Below are positions 3,240 to 36,741 of a stretch of 64,000 nt of DNA, piece after piece. The translations under genes and the position numbers were made by a program. Origin of the DNA: Escherichia phage JEP8; sequence record MT764208.1; one strand, written 5' to 3'. The notes under the pieces are model-generated. The model saw nothing but the letters and a program-made list of their open reading frames with translations, made no database searches and was not told where the DNA came from. How positions within the stretch are numbered: position 1 is the first letter of the stretch; each line of letters starts with the position of its first letter.

Positions 3240-3445
3240 TCAAGAGTTTTTGAAAACACATCTATCCATTGTTGAGTATATGCGGTTTCTTTCCATGACA
3301 CAATACCAGTCGAATAATGGTTTTTGTTTCCAGAAAAGGACGGGCATTTTGATGCATCTTCCATCATCTTTTCGGCGAACTCTGGTGCGTATACTCGCAA
3401 AATCTGTTGATATGCTTTGTATTCTTTAAATTTGCTCATAATCAT
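3230..3445 (-). CDS. hypothetical protein, MSKFK tandem paralog B
   Basis: N-terminus MSKFKEYKAY and central IVSWK; tandem to 3012..3239. Confidence 0.5.
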   Translation of the reverse strand: MIMSKFKEYKAYQQILRVYAPEFAEKMMEDASKCPSFSGNKNHYSTGIVSWKETAYTQQWIDVFSKTLEWC

Positions 3446-3704
3446 TCACTACCTTATCAGCTTCTTTTGTTGTTTTTACATCAACTGCGATAACTCGTAA
3501 AGGTTCGTCATGGTTCCACCAGTGGTCATGAATATCGGCTTGTGATTTATCACCAAAGGAATCACGAATATCATTTTTACATTTATAGCTAATGTGACCG
3601 TCATAGTCAACATAAAGGTAATTATCGAAAATCGGCGTTTTTAAGATCATACCGAAAAATCTTTCTTTGTGTGTCTTATCCAGCGTTGCAGTAATTCGCA
3701 TCAT
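3426..3704 (-). CDS. hypothetical protein, paralog family member 4
   Basis: motif HDHWW...VIAVDV. Confidence 0.55.
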   Translation of the reverse strand: MMRITATLDKTHKERFFGMILKTPIFDNYLYVDYDGHISYKCKNDIRDSFGDKSQADIHDHWWNHDEPLRVIAVDVKTTKEADKVVNDYEQI

Positions 3705-3716
3705 AATATATTCCTC

Positions 3717-3896
3717 TTAGAAAGGGATGGTCATTTCTTGAGCTTGTATGTTCTCGTTAGGATTAAACTTCATCCAACCGATATTGTCTACCAGCATATT
3801 TACATTTTTATCATATCCTACGTGAGTAGTCAACACTAAATGTGCTTTACCTTCAACGATGATTTCCATGTACTTCTGAACTTCGATAGCTTTCAT
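3717..3896 (-). CDS. hypothetical 59-aa protein
   Basis: hand-translated (MKAIEVQKYMEIIVEGK...); conserved RBS and promoter cassette 3930-3958 upstream. Confidence 0.45.
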   Translation of the reverse strand: MKAIEVQKYMEIIVEGKAHLVLTTHVGYDKNVNMLVDNIGWMKFNPNENIQAQEMTIPF

Positions 3897-3929
3897 TTTT
3901 GATTCTCCGTTTGTTGTCTTGATGGGAGT

Positions 3930-3958
3930 ATCTTACTACTCCCTTTAATCATTGTCAA
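3930..3958 (-). promoter_or_regulatory. early promoter TTGACA-N17-TAAGAT with GGGAGTAGTAAGATACTCCC hairpin
   Basis: drives 3717..3896; palindrome overlaps -10. Confidence 0.5.
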
Positions 3959-3961
3959 CTA

Positions 3962-4129
3962 TTATTTGTTAATTTCTGGTGCGTTGCTTGGATAGTAACC
4001 TTCTTTAACACCCAGATATTTTGCAACCATTCCGGTGATCTTCTGTGCTACTACGATATCGAATTTCAGGTAGTCTTCACCGTGGTTTGCTACAATGTAT
4101 GCTTCGCATTCTGCTTTAGTCGGGAACAT
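3962..4129 (-). CDS. hypothetical 55-aa protein, copy 2 of duplicated gene
   Basis: track ORF trimmed to internal ATG (MFPTKAECEAYIVANHGEDYLKFDIVVAQKITGMVAKYLGVKEGYYPSNAPEINK); about 85-90 percent nt identity to 704..871 by eye. Confidence 0.5.
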   Translation of the reverse strand: MFPTKAECEAYIVANHGEDYLKFDIVVAQKITGMVAKYLGVKEGYYPSNAPEINK

Positions 4130-4163
4130 TTTTGATTCTCCTATATCTCGTTGGTATGTGTGC

Positions 4164-4192
4164 ATTATAGGGGATCACCGATCCCCTGTCAA
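4164..4192 (-). promoter_or_regulatory. early promoter TTGACA-N17-TATAAT with palindromic spacer GGGGATCGGTGATCCCC
   Basis: drives 3962..4129. Confidence 0.65.
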
Positions 4193-4197
4193 CAACT

Positions 4198-4491
4198 TTA
4201 TAATGCTTTATATGCGTATTTCATAAATTTGTCTGCCACTTCATTGGCATGTTCAGCTTCTACGCCTGATTCGAGAACAATAGCTAGGTCGGTTTCGTCA
4301 TTCCCGCCGTACCAATGATTTGATGTTCGATTTTTTTCAATTGGAAATTGGTCACTTTTATCTGTGCGACAAAATACATCTAAATGCTCGTCGATGTAAA
4401 AGATCCAATCTTCATAAAGAATAACGGTATTAGCCAGATTTTTATTGCCTTCAACGAAAGGTTCGGCTACAAACAAATTAGTATGTTCCAT
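4198..4491 (-). CDS. hypothetical protein, paralog family member 5
   Basis: start trimmed to ATG 4491 (GAGGA upstream); motif SNHWYGG...LAIVLE. Confidence 0.5.
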   Translation of the reverse strand: MEHTNLFVAEPFVEGNKNLANTVILYEDWIFYIDEHLDVFCRTDKSDQFPIEKNRTSNHWYGGNDETDLAIVLESGVEAEHANEVADKFMKYAYKAL

Positions 4492-4507
4492 AGTAATTTC
4501 CTCAAAA

Positions 4508-4699
4508 TTATACAGCTTCGTAAACTTCCCAATGTCCAACACCAGCACGCTTAACGAAAAGGTTTTCTTTGATGTTATTCATAAACGTCTGGATGGATTT
4601 AATGCGGTTTGAAGGTTTCCATTCTTCGTTGGCATTGCGTCGATACATCATAACATTACCAGTTCGCTTATATTCAGCAACCATTTTAAGACCACACAT
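4508..4699 (-). CDS. hypothetical small protein (63 aa)
   Basis: ORF between family members; putative promoter 4751-4778 upstream. Confidence 0.4.
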   Translation of the reverse strand: MCGLKMVAEYKRTGNVMMYRRNANEEWKPSNRIKSIQTFMNNIKENLFVKRAGVGHWEVYEAV

Positions 4700-21467: not shown

Positions 21468-21495
21468 ATTATACACTATTGCGTTACGCTGTCAA
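21468..21495 (-). promoter_or_regulatory. early promoter TTGACA-N16-TATAAT
   Basis: drives 21107..21436. Confidence 0.55.
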
Positions 21496-23112
21496 CTCTT
21501 TTTCAAAAGTTTTTACGATATACATGATAGTGCTCAATTCAGACGGCGCTACTGTTTCTGTGTAGCCATCCGGCATATCTTCTTTTGAGATATAGGAAGT
21601 TTTACCTTTCATCGCTTCCTTGATCTTGTTCTCTAAGTCTAAGATCTTTTGACCGTCTTGTAAAGTCAATTCATAAAAGATCTCGTGGTTGAATTTGGAA
21701 AGTCGAGATTGACCTCCAATTCGTTCTTTTGTTGTTCTATTGGTTATTCCAAATTTAACGCCAACGAATATTTTTTCTTTTATTAGTTTTTGAATATACA
21801 ATACTCCTTTTTTTAAGGTATTATATCCATATTGTGCGCATTTAGGACAACGAGTTCCTTTCTGAAAGTTTGTTATTGTCGGTGTAAATTCATGGCCTTC
21901 ACTACACACCAAATTTAACTTTGTAGACACACCGTTCCATTCTCCAATAAATCCATTAAATATGATATTTTCTTTTTCGAAAATTGGTTTAAGTCTTTCA
22001 AGATATTCTTCTTTTGATAATGCATAATTATTTGCACATTTAGGACAACGAGTTCCATTCTGAAAACTGGATATGATAGGAGTGAAATTGTGGCCTTCAC
22101 AACACACCAAATCCAATTTTGTTACGTTACCTTTCCACTCACCAACGATTCCATTACAGGTTATATTTTCTTTAATAAATATCGGTGCTAATTTTTCGAA
22201 ATATTCTTCCTTTGGAATCAATTTACGTTCTCTTAATTTAAGAGCTTTACATTTCGGACAGCGGCGACCTTGTTGAAAAACTGCTATGCTCGGGGTGTAA
22301 TTGTGTTTTTCATTACACACCAAATTCAGCCTAGTTCTGCTACCTTTCCACTCACCAACGATTCCATTACAGGTTATATTTTCTTCAACGAAGATTGGTT
22401 TTAATCTTTTAAAATATTCTTCTTTTGATATTTTTCTACTGTTTCTCCAGTTGATAATACCGCAGGTCGAACACCTATTACCGGATTGAAAACCGTTTAC
22501 AGTCGGTGTAAATTTATGGCCTTCACTACACAATAAATTCATTTTTGTTGTGCTTCCGTTCCATTCTCCAATAAATCCATTAAATACGATATTTTCTTTT
22601 TCGAAAATTGGTTTAAGTCTTTCAAGATATTCTTCTTTTGATAGTAATTTCAATTCTCTTAATTTAAGAGCTTTACATTTAGGACAACGACTTCCGACCT
22701 GAAATGCTGTTATCGTCGGAGTAAATTCATGATCCTCACAACATGTTAAGTTTAGTTTTGTGTGCACGCCTTTCCATTCTCCGACGAATCCATTAAACTT
22801 TATATTTTCCTCAATAAAGATTGGTTTAAGTTTTTTATAATATTCTTCTTTTGATAGGGCATAATTATTTGCGCATCTAGAGCATCGTTTACCTTTTTGA
22901 AAATCTGATATTCTTGGTGTAAATTCATGTCCTTCACAACACACCAAACCCAATTTTGTTACGTTACCTTTCCACTCACCAACAAATCCATTAAATACGA
23001 TATTTTCTTTTTCGAAAATTGGTTTAAGTCTTTCGTAATATTCCAATGGGCTAATCGAGTTATAATTTTTCTTAACCCATTCAATCTCATGCGCCTTACG
23101 TACCAACATCAT
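21484..23112 (-). CDS. six-repeat Cys/His-rich protein with C-terminal T5orf172/GIY-YIG-like domain
   Basis: six ~70-aa tandem units (EEY.E.LKPIF..ENI.FNG..GEW.G...KLNL.C.EGH.FTP.I..FQ.G.RC..C) then GVLYIQKL...VGVKFGITNRTTKERI; start trimmed to ATG 23112. Confidence 0.6.
   Translation of the reverse strand: MMLVRKAHEIEWVKKNYNSISPLEYYERLKPIFEKENIVFNGFVGEWKGNVTKLGLVCCEGHEFTPRISDFQKGKRCSRCANNYALSKEEYYKKLKPIFIEENIKFNGFVGEWKGVHTKLNLTCCEDHEFTPTITAFQVGSRCPKCKALKLRELKLLSKEEYLERLKPIFEKENIVFNGFIGEWNGSTTKMNLLCSEGHKFTPTVNGFQSGNRCSTCGIINWRNSRKISKEEYFKRLKPIFVEENITCNGIVGEWKGSRTRLNLVCNEKHNYTPSIAVFQQGRRCPKCKALKLRERKLIPKEEYFEKLAPIFIKENITCNGIVGEWKGNVTKLDLVCCEGHNFTPIISSFQNGTRCPKCANNYALSKEEYLERLKPIFEKENIIFNGFIGEWNGVSTKLNLVCSEGHEFTPTITNFQKGTRCPKCAQYGYNTLKKGVLYIQKLIKEKIFVGVKFGITNRTTKERIGGQSRLSKFNHEIFYELTLQDGQKILDLENKIKEAMKGKTSYISKEDMPDGYTETVAPSELSTIMYIVKTFEKELTA
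21800..23055 (-). repeat. six tandem ~210-bp coding repeats inside the 542-aa gene
   Basis: repeat units evident in protein and DNA (recurring tttccactcaccaacgattccattacaggttatattttc-type segments). Confidence 0.7.
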
Positions 23113-23139
23113 TTTATCCTCCGTTGTTTCGATGTGTGC

Positions 23140-23167
23140 ATTATACATTACATCATCAGCATGTCAA
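23140..23167 (-). promoter_or_regulatory. early promoter TTGACA-N16-TATAAT
   Basis: drives the 542-aa repeat-protein gene. Confidence 0.55.
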
Positions 23168-24198: not shown

Positions 24199-24234
24199 AT
24201 TCACTATTCCTTCTTTTGATTAATTTACTAGACT

Positions 24235-24262
24235 ATTATACAGATTTAAATTTACTTGTCAA
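24235..24262 (-). promoter_or_regulatory. promoter TTGACA-N16-TATAAT upstream of gene 32
   Basis: overlaps the gene 59 stop. Confidence 0.55.
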
Positions 24263-24939
24263 CTATTTGTTTCGGCTTTTAATTGAGATATTTCTTTACA
24301 CTCTTTAACTACTTTAACAAATAATGCTCTTGCTTTTGCGGCGTCAATAACAAGTAGTTTCTTGTACGCCTTCATTTTAACACTATAAGTTTGCCAAATC
24401 AAGTCTTTGGCTACCTTGTCGTGTGCGTCGATTATATTTAGAAAGCTATCTAACAACATAAACGACTCAAACGATATAATCCGATTTTGCAGTAGTTTAA
24501 AGATACCGCTAGTTTCGGTTGCGGGATTGTATGTAATTAGCTCTTTAAGAGTAACCCCGCGTTTCTCTGAGAAGTATACCAGACTTTTAATGTCATCGTC
24601 AAATCGTGTTGCTGCATCGGTTATCTTTCCTATGTATTCCATATAAAAGCCGTATGCGTCAACATCAGTGATTTCACCTACCCATGCATCGGTATTAGCT
24701 ACCAGATTGCTTAGGAATAGGAAGTATAATTCTCTTAGATTGTACTTTTCCGCTAATTTTGCGAAATAATACTTATCTCTGCGTTTATTGAATGCGGTAT
24801 CAGACAACCGCATCCTCCAATTGTATTTTACGCAATCATAACGCCCGTTCATGTGAGCTTTCATCATGCAATATAACATATACACAGATTTAGCATTAAT
24901 TCGCATATCTGGATCTGGAGGAAGACGGTTTCTGATCAT
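24259..24939 (-). CDS. 59: helicase loader (T4 gp59 homolog)
   Basis: GKSVYMLY..MK.HMNGRYD..KYNW.MR.SD.A..KRRDKYYF and LSNLVAN.DAW.G match T4 gp59. Confidence 0.9.
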   Translation of the reverse strand: MIRNRLPPDPDMRINAKSVYMLYCMMKAHMNGRYDCVKYNWRMRLSDTAFNKRRDKYYFAKLAEKYNLRELYFLFLSNLVANTDAWVGEITDVDAYGFYMEYIGKITDAATRFDDDIKSLVYFSEKRGVTLKELITYNPATETSGIFKLLQNRIISFESFMLLDSFLNIIDAHDKVAKDLIWQTYSVKMKAYKKLLVIDAAKARALFVKVVKECKEISQLKAETNS

Positions 24940-24948
24940 ACATACCCC

Positions 24949-25218
24949 TTAAATATCGAGAGTGTTGGTCGGTTCGTCGATCACTCCCTTCCTGAGCGTT
25001 CTATTTACTATACATTCTTGTGTGATCTTGTCAATAATGGACACCGGAATATACTTCTGATAGTGACCATATTCTATAGAGTTTTCCTCTACAAACTGAG
25101 TTGTCGCTTCAAGATAAGTCAATCCCTCTTCAACAACCAGTTTTTCGATTGCAAGACCGTTTGCTGTTTTATTCGCGGCTTTTACCGCATGTTCATTAAG
25201 CATTGAACACCCGATCAT
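24949..25218 (-). CDS. 33: late-transcription accessory protein (T4 gp33 homolog)
   Basis: IEKLVVEEGLTYLEATTQFVEENSI matches T4 gp33 central block; position between 59 and dsbA. Confidence 0.8.
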   Translation of the reverse strand: MIGCSMLNEHAVKAANKTANGLAIEKLVVEEGLTYLEATTQFVEENSIEYGHYQKYIPVSIIDKITQECIVNRTLRKGVIDEPTNTLDI

Positions 25219-25471
25219 AGAGTTCTACTGCCTCATCGCGTTCTGCTTCGAAGGTTTCGCGCTGTTGCTGGTGATACAGTTTAAACAGAATGCCCCACAT
25301 TTTACCATCTACGCCTAATTCTTCTTTAGCACGCTGCTTGATCTCTTTGATCTTATCGCCATATGCTTCTTGAATGGTTTTCTGATCGCTGGCTTCTTTA
25401 ATCAGTTGTGCCAGGGTATTTCCGTGCACTGCTTCGTCAAATACTACTTTTTCTTTTTTCTGTTCAGCCAT
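25196..25471 (-). CDS. dsbA: dsDNA-binding protein DsbA
   Basis: FDEAVHG..LAQLIKEASD...ELGVDGKM...FEAERDEAVELYD.VF matches T4 DsbA. Confidence 0.8.
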   Translation of the reverse strand: MAEQKKEKVVFDEAVHGNTLAQLIKEASDQKTIQEAYGDKIKEIKQRAKEELGVDGKMWGILFKLYHQQQRETFEAERDEAVELYDRVFNA

Positions 25472-25475
25472 AATA

Positions 25476-26072
25476 TTAACCCTCTTTCGTCATTAATTGA
25501 AAACCACGTTCAGCTTTTGAAATTTCGCTAGGACTTAAATCGTCACCAACATATTCTAGCATCATTTCTCGGATAATGTCAAGTGCTTTTTCATCACCTG
25601 ATTTTAACTCGAACTCAAGTTCATAGTGAGCATCTCCCATTACTTCGCCGACTTTGCAATAATAGAAAGTGTCTTTGCACATTTCCACTATAGCACCCTC
25701 AAGGTCAAGTGTCAATGACTTGCGGTATGTCATTACTTGCAACAAAGGAACTATAAGGTCGGAGTTTACGCCTAGACTATCAACATAGTGATAGAAATCA
25801 TCCATTGTTGAAAAAGTAATTTCTTCTCGGTTGAATAGTCCAGATTCACCATCACCTATTTTGACCATGATCAATGATCTATTAACGTCAAGTCGAGCAT
25901 AAATTCCTTTTCGACGCAGTGCATGATCTTCGGTATCATAATAAAATTCGTGTTTTAGAGTGTTAGCATGATCTACGATATTGTACCCGTCATACATTGC
26001 TACCCACAAATCACGGATTGTTTCTACACCATCCTGTGAATGAGCATAGTATTTTAATTCAAGTTCTTTCAT
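25476..26072 (-). CDS. CYTH-like (triphosphate tunnel metalloenzyme) domain protein
   Basis: N-terminal E-L-E-L-K-Y (ExExK), central basic LRRKGIYARL, C-terminal YELEFELK (ExExE); ~198 aa; absent at this position in T4. Confidence 0.5.
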   Translation of the reverse strand: MKELELKYYAHSQDGVETIRDLWVAMYDGYNIVDHANTLKHEFYYDTEDHALRRKGIYARLDVNRSLIMVKIGDGESGLFNREEITFSTMDDFYHYVDSLGVNSDLIVPLLQVMTYRKSLTLDLEGAIVEMCKDTFYYCKVGEVMGDAHYELEFELKSGDEKALDIIREMMLEYVGDDLSPSEISKAERGFQLMTKEG

Positions 26073-26082
26073 GTGTCAACCC

Positions 26083-27030
26083 TTAGAACTCACCAATTTT
26101 CTGCAACATTTTAACTAACGCATTTGTTACAAAATAGTTATAAATTTTACCGCGTGGTGCTGGTTTAGATTTTTCCCATGCTAACAAAATTTCATATTCG
26201 ATGTTATCGGGAATAAATTCAAAATCAATAAGTTCGCGGTTTTCGTCAAAGCGTCGTGCTTCTTCCTCTGTCATCAAAGACTTTGGATCTTCGGCATCGA
26301 AAATTTGCTCCAACCATTTGGTTGCAATTGGTTTAGCTCGTTCCCCTTCCAGTCGTGAGATAATGAAATCACTACGGCACTTGATAGAAGCTACACCGTC
26401 TTTTGCGTCACCCTTAACACATTTTACCATAAGGTCTTTGTAAGGGCTACCATATTTGCATTTCTTCCACGCTTTCTGTACTGGCGCCCACTGTTTCACG
26501 TTTTTGTATTTGTGCAACTGTGTGTAGTCACCATCGCCGGAGTTGATCAGCACCTGGCGACCTTCTACAGAAAACTTTTTAGTTAACACAGCGATTATAT
26601 CATCTGCTTCAACTTTGTCAACCTTAATAACGTGATAAGGCATGTTCTCTTTAAACTCTTCGGTGATCTTATTGATTGCAGCAAAGATCATCTCCCAATC
26701 ACGCGGATCTGCGTCTCGCTTTTCCTTACGGTTGCGTTTATAGTAAGGGGCGATATCACGTCGCCAGTAACCTTTGCTTGAATCAAAAGCAAGCACCGTA
26801 ATAGGGTATTGCTCTTTGAATTTTGTCATATTATAACGCATGGTGTCAAGAATAAGATGACGGATCATGCCTTCATTAATGGGATCTTCCGGTTTAAAGG
26901 TATGCGAGATAGTAGCAATCATAAGCTGCGACATATCAATCAAATGCACACCTTCCGGCAGTTTATCTTCTGGATCATCGAAGAAATCATTAAGTGTAGC
27001 GGTAGTTTTTGTAAACGGGTTATACGTCAT
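26083..27030 (-). CDS. rnh: RNase H / FEN-1-type 5'-3' exonuclease
   Basis: GYWRRD.A.YYK.NR, EADD.IAVL.KKFS.EG, DGD.TQLHKY.NVKQW, GDKKD.VASIK.RSDF match T4 RNase H. Confidence 0.92.
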   Translation of the reverse strand: MTYNPFTKTTATLNDFFDDPEDKLPEGVHLIDMSQLMIATISHTFKPEDPINEGMIRHLILDTMRYNMTKFKEQYPITVLAFDSSKGYWRRDIAPYYKRNRKEKRDADPRDWEMIFAAINKITEEFKENMPYHVIKVDKVEADDIIAVLTKKFSVEGRQVLINSGDGDYTQLHKYKNVKQWAPVQKAWKKCKYGSPYKDLMVKCVKGDAKDGVASIKCRSDFIISRLEGERAKPIATKWLEQIFDAEDPKSLMTEEEARRFDENRELIDFEFIPDNIEYEILLAWEKSKPAPRGKIYNYFVTNALVKMLQKIGEF

Positions 27031-27032
27031 AA

Positions 27033-27230
27033 TTAAGTTCTCTCCACTCTCACAACAACATATTCGCCAAACGAGTTAGATACTTCACGATCATACCCGT
27101 ATTTCTCCATAACTCGCAGAATTGCATTGTTTAATTCGGCGCGGAAATAATTGTAATCCTTATCAGGGATTCTGTCAACTACCCATTTTGCACCGTCTGA
27201 CAAATCAACTTTAACCATAATATATATCAT
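27033..27230 (-). CDS. hypothetical small protein (65 aa)
   Basis: ORF immediately upstream of rnh, divergent from gene 34. Confidence 0.45.
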   Translation of the reverse strand: MIYIMVKVDLSDGAKWVVDRIPDKDYNYFRAELNNAILRVMEKYGYDREVSNSFGEYVVVRVERT

Positions 27231-27258
27231 CCTCTTTTGTTTCTATCAAGCCTTATTT

Positions 27259-27266
27259 TATAAATA
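27259..27266 (+). promoter_or_regulatory. T4-type late promoter TATAAATA for gene 34
   Basis: exact TATAAATA about 28 nt upstream of the gene 34 ATG, followed by AAGGAG RBS. Confidence 0.7.
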
Positions 27267-27294
27267 TGAACATACTATAAAAGGAGACCCAATA

Positions 27295-30200
27295 ATGGCA
27301 GATTTTTCTCAACATTTCAAGGCCACATTTGGCTTTGACGCTGGTAATGAAAAGGTCGTCAATGTAGCATTGGCTGATAAGAATGTCAACACCGATGCGG
27401 TCAACGTTGAATTTTTCAATTACCATAATGGTATTACTCAGTATGACACAACTCGCGGTTATGATCAATACGGAACTACAATCTATCAAAACCGTCCGTA
27501 TTATGCAAAAGAAGATATCACAAAACCAGCAGGTGATTTTGACCCGACTAAATGGCAAGCACTGCGCACGGACCCACGTTGGGATTATATTGCAGCAACT
27601 TCCGGTGATACTCCTTTACAGTCTGGTGATTATATCGCAGCAGATGGTCAATTTGCAAACTTGACTTTCTCTATGCCAACTAAACCAGCAGAGGGAGACA
27701 CTATAACAGTAAAAGATATCGGTGGCAAGTGTGGTGTTAACGAATTATCGTTCTTGAGTTCAGGACATGAGTTTTACCATAACGGTAATGTGTATAACCG
27801 AAAATGGTATTGCACTACCCCGTATGCAATGAACTATTTCATCTTTGTTCGTAATCGTTGGCATGTTTATCAGACAGGAACAGAGCCACGCGGTGTGTAC
27901 GCACAGCCAGCGATTGATGCTATTCAAATGCAGAATGGTGATCAGGTCTTTCGTCGTAGTTCGTTGGGTAATATTACCTTAGTGCTTCCTAAGTTTGCCA
28001 ACAATGGCGACATGATCCAGACTACAGACCTTGACGGATTAACCGCAACCAACCACGTTACGGTTAAAGTTCATGAGCACGCAGAAGAACAATCAATTGG
28101 CACGTCCGGTCTAAAAGAGATTATCGGTAAGCGTAGCGGTCATGGTGTATTCATCTTTGACAAGACGGAAAACTTATGGCGTTTGTGGGATGGTGATCAG
28201 TCTGTTCGTCTTAAACCGATCATCGATGACACTCGCTTGCAACCTAATAGCTATGTTGCTGTATTTGGTGGTCGTGATGTTACTCTGACGCTGCCGACCA
28301 ATGTCGAGCCGGGTGATCGTATTCAAGTTTCTATGCAGTATATGCACGGAAACCAGAATTGCCGTATTATCACCCCCACAGAGGATACAAAAATCCTTAT
28401 GCAGAAAAACATGGTTCAGTTTCCTAAGCGTAGCGAGTACCCATTCAATGGGACCGATACATGGACTGGAGTGTCTGAATTGTCTTTCAACGCTGCAAAT
28501 GATTATGTACCTTATCTGGAGTTCTCTTATTCAGAAGGTGATGATGGTAAGAAATACTGGTTGGTGGCACATGCTCACCCGATTGTAGAACGAGTAGATC
28601 CGACTCGTAAAGACCGTGTTGGTGTAATTGCACTGGCTACCCAGGATGAAACAAACAAAAACCATGAAGATAATCCTAGCGACGAAGTTGCGGTGACTCC
28701 AAAGGTTCTGGCTAATAAAACAGCCAACGAAACTCGACGCGGTATTGCTCGCATTGCAACTCAAGCGGAAACGCATCAAGATACTGGTTCCAACTTCCTG
28801 GATGATGTTATCGTTACGCCTAAAAAGTTAAATGACTGTGTTGCTACCGAAGCCCGTCGTGGTGTGATGGAAATTGCAACCCAGCACGAAACCAATGAAG
28901 GTTTAGACGATACCCGCGCTATTACTCCTAAGAAATTAGAAGAACGTCGCGCTTCCGAAGATCTCGCTGGTATTGCTGAAATTGTTCAGGTTGGCGGTAG
29001 TGCTGCCGCTCGACGTGGCGAAGCTGGTACAGGGATCTATAACATCAACGACCATGCTAAAATTGTTACGCCAAAAAACATCAACGAGGTCAAGGCGACC
29101 GAAACTTCCCGTGGTGTTGGCTATCTGGCAACTGACGCGGAAGTGCAAGGGGCTACAGAATCAACCCCGCAAGATGCTTTACTAATCACGACTCGCACGC
29201 TAACGAAACGTACTGCTACCGAATCGCGCACTGGTATCGCTGAAATTGCAACTCAGGAAGAAACAAACTTAGGTCAAAGTGATAACCATATCATCACGCC
29301 TAAAAAGCTGCATACTCGCCGCGCAACGGAAACTTTACACGGTTTAGCAGAAATTGCAACTCAGCCGGAATTTGACGCAGGTCTTGACGATGCTCGCATT
29401 TCTACCCCATTGAAGATTAAAACCTTCTTTGAGAATGCACAGCGTTTGAAAGTAGATCCGACTCAGGGGCTTAACCTTACTGGTGATTTGTGGCAAGGTA
29501 TCATGATCCGTGGTCTGGACGCAACCGAAGACACAAAAGGTGTCGCTAAAGTTGCTACTACTCAGCTTACGGATGCTGGTCAAGATGATACTACAATCAT
29601 CACGCCTAAAAAGCTGCAAGACAAAAAGGCCACAGAAGGTAAAGAAGGTATTATCCGAGTTGGTACTCAAGCCGAAACCGTGGCTGGTACACTGGCTAAT
29701 GTAGCAATTTCTCCGAAGAACTTCAAATATGTTGTTCAGACAGAGGATACATGGAAAGCAACCGAAGCGCGTCGTGGTTTCTTGAAAGTTGCCACTCAGG
29801 AAAACTGTTTTGTTGGTGATAATCTGCAAGGTTCTACTCAAGAACTAGGAAACTACCAGCATGACGGAATTGCTGTTACTCCTAAAGGATTAAACTACGC
29901 TCTTGCTAATTTCTTACCTAAGATGGCAACCGCTCAGAATAGTTTGAAATTGGGTAACGTAGAGGCCGCTAAATGGGCGCGTAGAGACATTGACCAGACC
30001 ATAGAGAGCAATTACACGTTTAATAAAAACGTTAACGTGAAGGGCGATTTAGGGTGCTTAAAATCCGGTTCCTTTGAAACTCTGTCTGTGACTAAGAACT
30101 CTACTGATGTTCCGAGTAATGGTCATCTGGTGTTGGGTGAGCGTGGAGTTGACGGTCACACCGGAATTACATTGCATGGCACAACCGCATCGGAAGGCAT

Positions 30201-33972: not shown

Positions 33973-36741
33973 ATGGCAGATTTAAGCAGAATCCAATTTA
34001 AACGTACTAGCACTAAAGGCCGTCGACCTGATGCTGGTACGATGAATCCGGGGGAATTGGCAATCAACCTTGCGGATCAATATCTTCTTACTAAAAATGA
34101 TTCCGGTGCTATTATCAATTTAAGTTGTCCTCCGGTTTATGACCGCGATGTTACAATGGCAGGTAAGGTTAAAGGTAATAATTATATCTTAAGTAAAACC
34201 GCTAACTATCTGGAAGATCAGACAGCGCGAGATCTTAACTACTTTGGTGCTTTCCGTACCAATGGTCTTGATGGTTTTCTCGAACTCACGCTAAACGTTC
34301 CTCATTCTTCTGGTGTTCAGCATGGTCGAGGATTTACTTTCCAGTATGGACACACTGGATCGCGTGTAGAAACTTATGGCTATAATAAAGAAGGTCAAAA
34401 AGCATTTAGCTATAAAATGTATCATGAAGGTGATAAACCAACTCCAGGAGAATTGAACGTTTATAGCAAACAAGAAGTTGACCGTATGTTTGTTAAGAAC
34501 GTTAAACTTGCTACATCTCCTAGTGATATCGTTGAAGGCTATTTTAAATTAGCAACTGCAATGATTCCACAAAACGGTCTTAGCGTATTTTTCCGTATTC
34601 ATGGTGGTAACGGATATAACGTTACTGCATACGATCAAGTTGATATTGTAGAAATTGTTATTCGCAGTGGAAATGGTCGCCCTAAAGGTGTTAACGTTAT
34701 TGCATATCGCCGAAATACAAACAAATCATTTGATGTTTTGGCTGTTAATACTTCTGGTGATAACTATGATATCTATGTGAAATATCAGCGTTACACTGAT
34801 AACGTTATTGTTGAATTTGGTAAAAGTGTTGGTGTTAATCTGGTAGTTCATGACGTTCCAGATTTTGTTGCTGATCGTCCTGCTGGCGATAATGTTATTG
34901 GCGGTCGCGCGGTAACTCTTTTTAATACTGAAAATAAACGTGGTGTGTTAAGTTTTGATGATAACACACAAAACAGCTATGACATTGTTCACTTGAGTAA
35001 TGATAGGGGTACAGGACGAAAATATATTCGTAAATTCCGTAGCAACTATAATGAAATGATCTGGCATGAGACGGTTCAAGGTGCTACTTATCGTCTGGCT
35101 ACTGGTGCAACTGATGTTCAGGATATTCTAACCGTTGAATCTGTTAGCTCAATTTCTGGAACTCATAAAGGTAATATTACTTCTGGTCGTATGCTGTTAA
35201 ATGGTGGTAGTAATGTTATTACCTTGCGGCGTCCTGCTGGTCAATCCAACCATATTGCGTTTCAAGATAATCGTACTGGAGATATTACCCGTCAAGGATG
35301 GATCGGTTATGCCAATGCTAATACTAACGTTTTTGAATGGTATAGTGATGTAGGTGGCAGTTCTATTCGTCAACATATCGACGGACAGATCGAATTTCAG
35401 ACAGGTAGCATGAAGCGAGTTTATACTAACGGACAATTCATTTCATTATATGCCGATGGCTTCCGTACTGTATATGGTAACTATGGTTCATGGTGGCGAA
35501 ATGACGGTAGTAACGTTTATCTGATGAGCACAAAATCAGGCGACACTATGGGTCCGTGGAATACCTTTAGGCCGTTCATCTATAGCCTAGCCAATGGTAA
35601 CGTTACATTGGGGGGTAGTGATGCTGGCAACCATTTAATGCGTCTCAATAATGAAAGTAAACGAGTTGAAGTGAACGCAACCACACATCTTGGAAGCAGA
35701 CTGTATTGGGAACGTAACGACGAAGGATCGAAATCTGTATTCTTTGTTAAATCTTGGGGTAATGAAACTCGCGCTCAAGTGTGGGAACTTGCAGACGAAA
35801 CAAGCTATCATCTATATTCTCAGCGTGATTCTAACGGATCGATTCAATTTCGTGTTGCTGGTAGTTTGGAAACTGGAGGCCGCGCCCAGATTAATGGCGA
35901 TTTGGTCGTTACTAATGTTCTTCGTACAAATAACCAAATACAGATTTATAGAGATAACAACAAAGAGATCTGGTTTAAAGATGCTAATGGTACTAACCGT
36001 GGTGTTATCTGGGGAGATGGTGGCGGCAAAATGAGATTGCGTAACTATTCTGGTGGAGAATATGACCATGTGTTCGAAGCTGGTATGATTCGCCTTGAGC
36101 GTGGTTACGCCAATGGACAAGGTGCTGGGTTGATTCGCGGAGAAGTACAAGGTGGAGCATGGTCTGAATGGAGAACTCGCGCTGCTGGCTTATTGGTTGA
36201 CTGTCCAAATGCTCAAACTTCCGCATATAACGTATGGAAAGCGACCAAATGGGGTTTAGACCACATCGCGGCAATGGGTGTTCATGTTCCTAACGGTAAT
36301 GTTGGTAACTCTATTGCGCGTCTGCATGTTGGTGGCACTAACTTTGACTTTAACGCCTCCGGTGATTTCCAGGCAGGTCGTAACGGTAATTTTAACGATG
36401 TTTATATTCGCTCTGATGCTCGCCTTAAAATCAATAAGGAAGAGTATAAAGAGAATGCCACCGATAAAGTTAATCGCTTGACTGTGTACACCTACGATAA
36501 GGTTAAGTCTTTGACGGACCGCACTGTTATCGCTCATGAAGTTGGTATTATTGCTCAGGATCTTGAAAAAGAATTGCCGGAAGCAGTAACAACTTCTAAG
36601 ATCGGCGATCCTGATAAGCCAGAAGAGATCTTAACAATTTCTAACTCTGCTGTCAACGCTCTTTTAATTAAGGCGTTTCAGGAAATGAGCGAAGAATTGA
36701 AAGCCGTTAAAGCTGAACTAGCGGAACTTAAAAAGAATTAA
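33973..36741 (+). CDS. 37: long tail fibre distal subunit / receptor-binding protein (gp37) with C-terminal intramolecular chaperone domain
   Basis: 922 aa in gene 37 position; C-terminal ~110 aa (SDARLKINKEEYKE...IAQDLEKELPEAV...coiled coil) resembles the auto-cleaving S74-type chaperone of T5 pb1 / endosialidases. Confidence 0.85.
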   Translation: MADLSRIQFKRTSTKGRRPDAGTMNPGELAINLADQYLLTKNDSGAIINLSCPPVYDRDVTMAGKVKGNNYILSKTANYLEDQTARDLNYFGAFRTNGLDGFLELTLNVPHSSGVQHGRGFTFQYGHTGSRVETYGYNKEGQKAFSYKMYHEGDKPTPGELNVYSKQEVDRMFVKNVKLATSPSDIVEGYFKLATAMIPQNGLSVFFRIHGGNGYNVTAYDQVDIVEIVIRSGNGRPKGVNVIAYRRNTNKSFDVLAVNTSGDNYDIYVKYQRYTDNVIVEFGKSVGVNLVVHDVPDFVADRPAGDNVIGGRAVTLFNTENKRGVLSFDDNTQNSYDIVHLSNDRGTGRKYIRKFRSNYNEMIWHETVQGATYRLATGATDVQDILTVESVSSISGTHKGNITSGRMLLNGGSNVITLRRPAGQSNHIAFQDNRTGDITRQGWIGYANANTNVFEWYSDVGGSSIRQHIDGQIEFQTGSMKRVYTNGQFISLYADGFRTVYGNYGSWWRNDGSNVYLMSTKSGDTMGPWNTFRPFIYSLANGNVTLGGSDAGNHLMRLNNESKRVEVNATTHLGSRLYWERNDEGSKSVFFVKSWGNETRAQVWELADETSYHLYSQRDSNGSIQFRVAGSLETGGRAQINGDLVVTNVLRTNNQIQIYRDNNKEIWFKDANGTNRGVIWGDGGGKMRLRNYSGGEYDHVFEAGMIRLERGYANGQGAGLIRGEVQGGAWSEWRTRAAGLLVDCPNAQTSAYNVWKATKWGLDHIAAMGVHVPNGNVGNSIARLHVGGTNFDFNASGDFQAGRNGNFNDVYIRSDARLKINKEEYKENATDKVNRLTVYTYDKVKSLTDRTVIAHEVGIIAQDLEKELPEAVTTSKIGDPDKPEEILTISNSAVNALLIKAFQEMSEELKAVKAELAELKKN

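Follow-up and report, generated by a model that had tools for sequence, protein, structure and literature searches.

Within a 64,000-nt window of the genome of Escherichia phage JEP8 (MT764208.1), a coding sequence at 25476..26072 on the minus strand, located between the genes rnh and dsbA, encodes a stand-alone protein of the CYTH/triphosphate tunnel metalloenzyme (TTM) superfamily (198 aa, ATG start). Judging from its sequence and its modelled structure, this open reading frame (ORF) probably specifies a catalytically competent stand-alone TTM of the YgiF clade. New here is the observation that the core of the gene is an allelic cassette, in which the residues of the tunnel are conserved and other positions have diverged. 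The initial annotation had presented the CYTH call as a fresh observation; the call was correct, but it is already on record, because the orthologue in phage RB49, the hypothetical protein RB49p245 of the RefSeq entry, bears the remark "similar to ... HI1598, ygiF" and Nolan et al. 2006 reported "RB49ORF244c, CYTH domain, E 0.0026" (PMC1524935). The match in RB49 was thus noted between 2003 and 2006. Among the phage records, two label the gene "inorganic triphosphatase", two "adenylate cyclase" and the others hypothetical; the family corresponds to PHROG 14893, for which no function is annotated.

Fold and active-site residues

The initial annotation had named a Pfam search and the prediction of an eight-strand tunnel as checks of its CYTH/TTM assignment, and profile, structure-prediction and fold searches bore the assignment out. 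Pfam CYTH (PF01928) matched residues 1–190 over profile positions 1–178 of 179 with 30.5 bits, above the gathering cut-off of 23.2; an NCBIfam scan of the protein returned no matches. The top sequence match in the PDB was E. coli YgiF, which was also the sole PDB match of a phage-only profile (E 1.6e-8), and an hhalign comparison of the phage family with 30 bacterial YgiF-like proteins reached a probability of 99.8% (E 1.7e-30). The AlphaFold2 (AF2) model, built from an alignment of 41 phage and bacterial sequences, had a predicted local distance difference test score (pLDDT) of 94.6 and a predicted template modelling score of 0.88. It contains eight long strands (residues 2–10, 31–46, 57–62, 67–76, 79–87, 108–123, 127–140 and 148–159), four long helices, a short helix (51–54) and a C-terminal helix (186–195), and its eight antiparallel strands are predicted to form the closed tunnel of the CYTH superfamily. 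A Foldseek search with this model retrieved YgiF (E 1.3e-13, template modelling (TM) score 0.79) as the nearest among solved structures, with which the protein also has the SKAERG motif of the C-terminal helix in common. A CHAD domain is absent; the phage protein stops at residue 198, at the end of the TTM domain, and dsbA follows 4 nt on. For this reason we take it to be a relative of the TTM domain of YgiF and not a YgiF orthologue.

All three sequence motifs on which the initial annotation relied are present, namely ExExK (M-K-E3-L-E5-L-K7-Y), the central segment L52-RRKGIYAR-L61 and ExExE (Y150-E151-L-E153-F-E155-L-K157), although two details did not hold. ExExE is not at the end of the protein but at residues 151–155 of 198, on a strand about 40 residues before the C-terminus; a further helix comes next, then a short strand and finally the C-terminal helix. 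The "basic patch" LRRKGIYARL exists, but R60 alone is its conserved residue, as R53, R54 and K55 vary in homologues. Across the 41 phage and bacterial sequences 17 columns were invariant, including E3, E5, K7, R60, K71, R82, E84, R117, D134, E151, E153, E155 and K186. With hhalign, the phage residues paired with those of YgiF as E3/E4, E5/E6, K7/K8, R60/R56 and K71/K69 in the N-terminal part and as R82/R81, E84/E83, R117/R126, D134/D143, E151/E158, E153/E160 and E155/E162 in the rest. The basic residues lining the tunnel (K7, R60, K71, R82, R117, K186 and R189) are conserved, and no phage allele has a change at the four metal-binding glutamates or at the other basic residues. In structures of YgiF with inorganic tripolyphosphate (PPPi) and Mn, metal 1 sits on E160 and metal 2 on E4, E6 and E162, where it positions the attacking water; the mutants E6A, E160A and R56A are impaired (PMC4641920, Martinez et al. 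2015). With the metal glutamates and basic residues conserved, all that a two-metal hydrolytic mechanism needs would be in place.

Origin and allelic structure of the gene

JEP8 is an RB49-like T4-type coliphage of the genus Krischvirus. The 2.2 kb around the CYTH gene are 96–98% identical to RB49, JSE, Whisky, FL20 and 54 other Krischvirus phages, whose hosts are E. coli and Shigella; the orthologues are RB49p245, RB49ORF244c and Phi1 ORF245. In T4, rnh and dsbA are adjacent with a gene-free gap of 8 nt. The initial annotation was therefore right that T4 has no gene at this place and that a 198-aa ORF separates dsbA from rnh here, although it did not give the strand, and because the two genes adjoin in T4, the CYTH ORF appears as an insertion specific to the Krischvirus lineage.

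The phage collection contained the protein in 58 Krischvirus-type records, all of E. coli or Shigella phages, and its only other match was a Salmonella record with a 29%-identical protein annotated "adenylate cyclase". The gene is maintained: all 58 phage records that have the region contain a homologue that spans 80% or more of the protein (100% in the rows listed). An exhaustive hidden Markov model search of 1.84 billion representatives gave 3 matches at E<1e-30 and 6 at E<1e-10, own family representatives counted, and the remaining ~210 matches were ordinary bacterial CYTH and CYTH-CHAD proteins. A scan of IMG/VR with the family alignment, by means of short back-translated patterns, found at least two close Krischvirus loci among the matches listed. 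Distant phage homologues with 45%, 39% and 30% identity all lie directly upstream of dsbA and gene 33; the order rnh-CYTH-dsbA-33 is kept in the 45%-identical homologue and CYTH-dsbA-33 in the other two. Since even these keep their place before dsbA-33, the insertion seems to be old and positionally fixed in the Krischvirus-like clade. One distant member, P0077, is without D134 and K157.

Among cellular proteins, stand-alone proteobacterial CYTH proteins come closest, with 25–31% identity. Two of these bacterial homologues, P0048 and P0052, are encoded directly upstream of ahcY (S-adenosylhomocysteine hydrolase) on alphaproteobacterial contigs (L016:5001-7064 and L018:5001-7056). Tripolyphosphate is an intermediate of S-adenosylmethionine synthetase, which makes a link of the bacterial homologues to the methyl cycle conceivable. 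A role of the CYTH protein in the cytosine modification of Krischvirus, for which no pathway is known (PMC13390438), seems less likely, as the modified phage SAP and the unmodified TB34 match the query to the same degree (82.4% identity, same E-value and bit score).

When the rnh-CYTH-dsbA-33 region of JEP8 was aligned with that of RB49, Phi1, Skers and Krischvirus contigs from metagenomes, the gene proved to be unevenly conserved. Mismatch maps delimit an allelic cassette with sharp edges at gene nt ~28 and ~453 (25620..26045, minus strand), which comprises codons ~10–151, from the end of beta1 to beta7 and including alpha1 and alpha2. Within it, DNA identity is 70–88% in Phi1 and 41–60% in Skers and the loci L003, L005 and L011, against 93–100% in the flanks. 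At the protein level, residues 1–150 are 43–46% identical, compared with 97–99% for RNase H, 96–98% for DsbA and 93–100% for gp33. The 3′ part of the gene (25476..25619, minus strand) encodes beta8 with E151-x-E153-x-E155-x-K157, a helix at residues 162–171 and the C-terminal helix with S185-K186-A-E-R189-G (helix and strand limits from DSSP on the AF2 model). This part is 96–100% identical in protein sequence in all Krischvirus alleles, and its S185-K186-A-E-R189-G motif is common to the phage and the bacterial YgiF-like proteins.

At least 4–5 allele classes could be distinguished (RB49-type, Phi1-type, P0035-type, Skers/P0036-41-type and P0042-type), carried by genomes that are otherwise 93–98% identical; the variation of the core in these near-identical phages nearly reaches that of the tail-fibre tips. 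Over ~46 kb aligned with Skers, just one other homologous stretch, the distal tail-fibre region, was likewise too diverged for blastn to align; the remaining gaps in that alignment are gene-content differences, and homing-endonuclease-type genes are found at two or more of these. In the comparison with Phi1, the cassette is among the lowest ~1% of 422 sliding windows. Other strongly diverged stretches of the window, relative to Skers or Phi1, lie at ~34400–36500 (distal tail-fibre genes) and 3300–4600 (small early ORFs); for tail-fibre tips such divergence is expected.

Synonymous divergence (pS) in the cassette amounts to 0.77–0.87 and is saturated, compared with 0.04–0.19 in the flanks, and the ratio of nonsynonymous to synonymous substitution rates (dN/dS) is, where measurable, 0.10–0.39 in the cassette and 0–0.16 in the neighbours. 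With synonymous sites saturated as well and dN/dS at 0.1–0.4, rapid evolution of the core in situ was ruled out. The data would better fit several old alleles that recombination has shuffled, the crossovers lying in the conserved ends that encode the motifs (MKELELKYY, ELEFELKSGD...). According to this scenario, an ancestor of the Krischvirus-like phages would have acquired a CYTH gene between rnh and dsbA, and the core of this gene would now circulate as several old alleles swapped at those ends. The GC content of the cassette is 32–34% in Skers, L003 and L011, ~39% in the JEP8 type and 40% in the whole 64-kb window, which hints at an import of the low-GC cassettes from an unsampled lineage. 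Inside the cassette, conservation is 0.77 for tunnel-facing positions, a class assigned from strand register (known catalytic residues and DSSP) and not from coordinates, against 0.44–0.49 for outward-facing, helix or loop positions, a difference reached in 0 of 20,000 permutations. Most economically, the gene would encode a working triphosphate hydrolase of the YgiF clade, with purifying selection acting on its tunnel, and would probably be expressed along with the replication genes. The diversity of the cassette hints at host interaction, and it is compatible as well with a non-essential accessory gene whose alleles have diverged beyond homogenisation by recombination.

Further mosaicism was found next to the cassette. 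In L019 (positions 711-1286; metagenome contig ERZ28576423 scaffold_4687), a 191-aa homing-endonuclease gene of the HNH_3 + AP2 type is inserted at the rnh|CYTH junction, and such traffic could feed mosaicism on both sides. A second mosaic patch is located at ~26180–26222 (minus strand) in the 3′ part of rnh, where ~20 substitutions are clustered in an otherwise near-identical gene. It separates JEP8, L003 and L011 from RB49, Phi1, Skers and L014, corresponding to two versions of RNase H residues ~269–283. The truncated variant P0034 (130 aa), considered as a sign of dispensability, turned out to be an artefact of a run of N in a scaffold gap.

Catalysis, substrate and competing explanations

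By analogy with its nearest characterised relative, the protein is most likely a Mg/Mn-dependent triphosphate hydrolase and not a cyclase. We infer the catalytic mechanism by homology to YgiF: the substrate triphosphate would be held by K7, R60, K71, R82, R117, K186 and R189 together with a metal on E153, and a second Mg2+ or Mn2+ ion, bound by E3, E5 and E155, would activate a water molecule for attack on the terminal phosphate, yielding inorganic phosphate and diphosphate. Such an attack by water would make the enzyme a phosphohydrolase. YgiF itself is a Mg-dependent, fairly specific tripolyphosphatase with undetectable cyclase activity (PMC3440374). Inorganic tripolyphosphate would therefore be the default substrate by analogy. 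Together with the likely Asp/Asn in place of the second arginine of the RxR motif, the loss of the CHAD domain, which in YgiF reportedly binds polyphosphate, makes an organic triphosphate, whether a nucleotide or the 5′ end of an RNA, no less plausible as a substrate of the phage enzyme.

Several points weigh against an active enzyme of this type. The RxR motif is incomplete in the phage clade, where it reads A-R-[LIV]-[DN] with a single arginine. HMMER pairwise alignments place Y58 opposite the catalytic Arg56 of YgiF, and if they were right, activity could be strongly reduced. Tripolyphosphate hydrolysis by YgiF is itself of doubtful physiological importance (PMC3440374), and literature searches on CYTH/TTM and phage, on Krischvirus/RB49 and defence, and on ygiF turned up no functional work on the family. 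The promoter candidates described below are consensus matches only, and the tunnel-facing class has the basis stated above. As to the RxR motif, R60 aligns with the catalytic first arginine and D62 with the second in both MAFFT and hhalign, with the next hairpin two residues shorter. The AF2 model of the bacterial homologue P0056 (pLDDT 94.2) has a tight hairpin of strands 53–59 and 62–68, in which K68 lies opposite the residue two before the first arginine; in the phage model, strands 57–62 and 67–76 bring K71 opposite Y58, two before R60. This common hairpin register supports the hhalign pairing, so that R60 is probably the catalytic first arginine and Asp62 the probable replacement of the second. 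In a plant enzyme, mutation of the neighbouring second arginine was tolerated (PMC4641920).

Comparison with known systems places the phage protein close to the TTM domain of E. coli YgiF (inorganic triphosphatase, PDB 5a60/5a61, TTM residues 1–200). Both have ExExK, the lysine, RxE, R, D and ExExE as well as the SKAERG C-terminal helix and probably the catalytic arginine, and the same two-metal hydrolytic mechanism is to be expected. Unlike YgiF, the phage protein consists of the TTM domain without linker or CHAD, most likely carries Asp62 instead of the second RxR arginine, has a following hairpin shorter by two residues, and is virus-borne within a string of replication genes. The stand-alone bacterial YgiF-like CYTH proteins (~190–220 aa; Caulobacter, Burkholderia/Caballeronia, Marinobacter and others) have the same architecture and length and, at 25–31% identity, all catalytic residues in common with it, but they keep RxR and their genes are chromosomal. 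CYTH domains borne by other large phages (Aeromonas phage Aeh1 ORF004c, 65.2, D3; jumbo-phage CYTH triphosphatases, proposed to degrade unwanted nucleoside triphosphates (NTPs)) (PMC1524935, PMC7824862) are not orthologous, as indicated by Foldseek TM scores of 0.38–0.55, 12–16% identity and other genome positions.

The diverged alleles might alternatively belong to a counter-defence or host-interaction enzyme. It would break down an immune or stress nucleotide that bears a triphosphate, such as a signalling or chain-terminating NTP or an alarmone, or drain one of the triphosphate pools of the host, while host-factor recognition or inhibition keeps the positions outside the tunnel polymorphic. 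We regard this as rather unlikely. It would account for a lineage-specific gene outside the T4 core, whose core ranks among the region's most diverged homologous stretches (in the Skers comparison, the tail-fibre tips alone are similarly diverged), of which at least 4–5 old alleles coexist in genomes 93–98% identical elsewhere, in which tunnel-facing positions are conserved and others diverged, and whose dN/dS is 2–3 times that of the neighbouring genes. However, old alleles and recombination explain the divergence as well, a pattern that can persist neutrally in an accessory gene, and a dN/dS below 0.4 gives no direct sign of positive selection. PADLOC gave no match at E<=1, a search of defence-system models that did not address known anti-defence families directly, and the literature on phage CYTH proteins or Krischvirus and defence offered no experimental link. 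Anti-defence genes of T4-type phages are usually among the early accessory genes, whereas the CYTH gene lies in a cluster for replication and late transcription. Most known immune signals are cyclic or derived from ADP-ribose, unlike the triphosphates on which TTMs act. With a similarly low probability, the gene could be an arms-race module: the enzyme would hit a triphosphate-bearing host immune or stress molecule, or be sensed by a host defence, and frequency-dependent selection would keep ancient alleles. The tunnel enzyme would then have diversified like a receptor-binding protein, its cassette being shuffled between conserved motif-coding ends. The initial annotation had named the gene an anti-defence or host-takeover candidate, and the unusual allelic diversity of its core is the one piece of circumstantial support for this. 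As the cassette pattern resembles that of host-interaction genes, it lifts the anti-defence reading from speculation to a testable minority hypothesis.

The CYTH gene strictly adjoins rnh, across a 10-nt spacer, in all loci of the Krischvirus type and also in that 45%-identical relative for which the upstream gene was recovered. This could point to an RNA 5′-triphosphatase that trims the 5′-triphosphate of lagging-strand RNA primers together with RNase H, or else converts 5′-triphosphate mRNA to 5′-diphosphate and thereby speeds up RppH/RNase E-dependent decay of host transcripts. The loss of one tunnel arginine and of CHAD, which argues against a dedicated polyphosphate role, agrees with this. 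But neighbouring genes in T4-type phages often reflect history and not a common function, T4 manages replication without an enzyme of this kind, and no nucleic-acid-binding domain is present. Moreover, the nearest relative YgiF prefers free PPPi (PMC3440374), and the C-terminal helix closes one side of the tunnel in this clade, limiting access of polymers (PMC4641920). All in all, we consider an RNA-directed activity improbable.

An adenylate cyclase of class IV (CyaB-type), which would increase the level of cAMP or some other cyclic nucleotide during infection, is the least supported reading and has little chance of being right. The records MK573636 and OR525698 carry the label "adenylate cyclase", and the class IV enzymes (Aeromonas CyaB, Yersinia YpAC-IV; PDB 2fjt, 3n0y/3n10) have the superfamily fold and the two-metal site that is common to cyclases and hydrolases of this fold, although they take up their substrate from the other side of the tunnel (Martinez et al., PMC4641920). 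The phage-only profile matched no cyclase in the PDB, a mixed profile reached them at E 0.37–0.92, and no specific relationship in sequence or structure to characterised class IV cyclases was found. Furthermore, YgiF has undetectable cyclase activity, and for many CYTH proteins the label "adenylate cyclase" is a historical legacy (PMC3440374). It is just as doubtful that the protein is a catalytically weakened or non-enzymatic binder of triphosphate or polyphosphate, or a dispensable remnant that drifts neutrally. A Tyr, Val or Ile would take the place of the catalytic arginine if the HMMER alignment were right, P0077 is without D134 and K157, and dN/dS exceeds that of the neighbours. Yet every allele keeps the four metal-binding glutamates and the other basic residues, dN/dS lies clearly below 1, a homologue of sufficient coverage is present in 58/58 phage records, and the one apparent truncation, P0034, is the scaffold-gap artefact mentioned above.

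Gene neighbourhood and expression

The genes rnh, CYTH, dsbA, 33, 59 and 32 follow one another on the minus strand and are tightly packed; gene 34 (long tail fibre) lies upstream in divergent orientation. The upstream neighbour rnh (RNase H / 5′-3′ exonuclease, 315 aa) occupies 26083..27030 and is transcribed in the same direction, and the downstream neighbour dsbA (dsDNA-binding late-transcription protein, 91 aa) occupies 25196..25471, both on the minus strand. The spacers measure 10 nt between rnh and CYTH and 4 nt between CYTH and dsbA. The former (26073..26082, minus strand) reads as containing a ribosome-binding site (TAAGGGTTGACACATG), with the Shine-Dalgarno sequence AAGGG 7 nt 5′ of the CYTH ATG.

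A perfect sigma-70 consensus (TTGACA-16-TATAAT with TG, 12/12 match) is located inside rnh at 26594..26621 on the minus strand, directed towards the CYTH gene, and represents a candidate early promoter. Another sigma-70-like match lies within the CYTH gene at 25687–25715 (minus strand), and a third in its 3′ part at 25553..25582 (minus strand; TTGACA-18-TAGAAT, TG-extended, 11/12 match), ~80 nt upstream of dsbA. The latter is present in 7 of the 7 Krischvirus alleles examined, and the distant relative L013 has a similar sigma-70-like site in the same place; it is possibly an internal promoter for dsbA-33-59. In total, the minus strand of 24800–27500 holds 20 sigma-70-like matches compared with 8.7 +/- 3.2 expected, with several TTGACA boxes in coding sequence. 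From the tight rnh-CYTH-dsbA-33-59-32 string and the sigma-70-type matches upstream, we infer that the CYTH gene is probably expressed early, before or during DNA replication, along with the replication genes. A late promoter for it was rejected, as the sole TATAAATA nearby (27259–27266) lies on the plus strand, where it serves gene 34.

Two further loci of the window differ between these phages. At 21484–23148 (minus strand), a 554-aa ORF encodes six tandem CapR-homology/treble-clef zinc-finger repeats (Pfam PF21817, E 9e-32, six stretches) and a C-terminal domain. This locus is unalignable among JEP8, Skers and Phi1; a GIY-YIG nuclease takes its place in Skers and ORF240 "endonuclease" in Phi1. 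Skers (L007:6802-7398) also carries an HNH homing-endonuclease gene between 59 and 32, where JEP8 has a short spacer only (~24204–24270); in T4, segG is found at the 59|32 junction.

The CYTH domain call alone adds nothing, since it is already on record for this gene and CYTH proteins are scattered across large phages. The Krischvirus family may offer a good entry point to the role of phage CYTH enzymes, being small, confidently modelled, with a clear and mutable active site, present in 58/58 records, and provided by nature with deeply diverged alleles in near-isogenic genomes. If the allele diversity does reflect pressure from the host, it would point to an unmapped triphosphate-linked step in the conflict between phage and host; if it is not host-driven, the gene would be an ordinary accessory metabolic enzyme of these phages.
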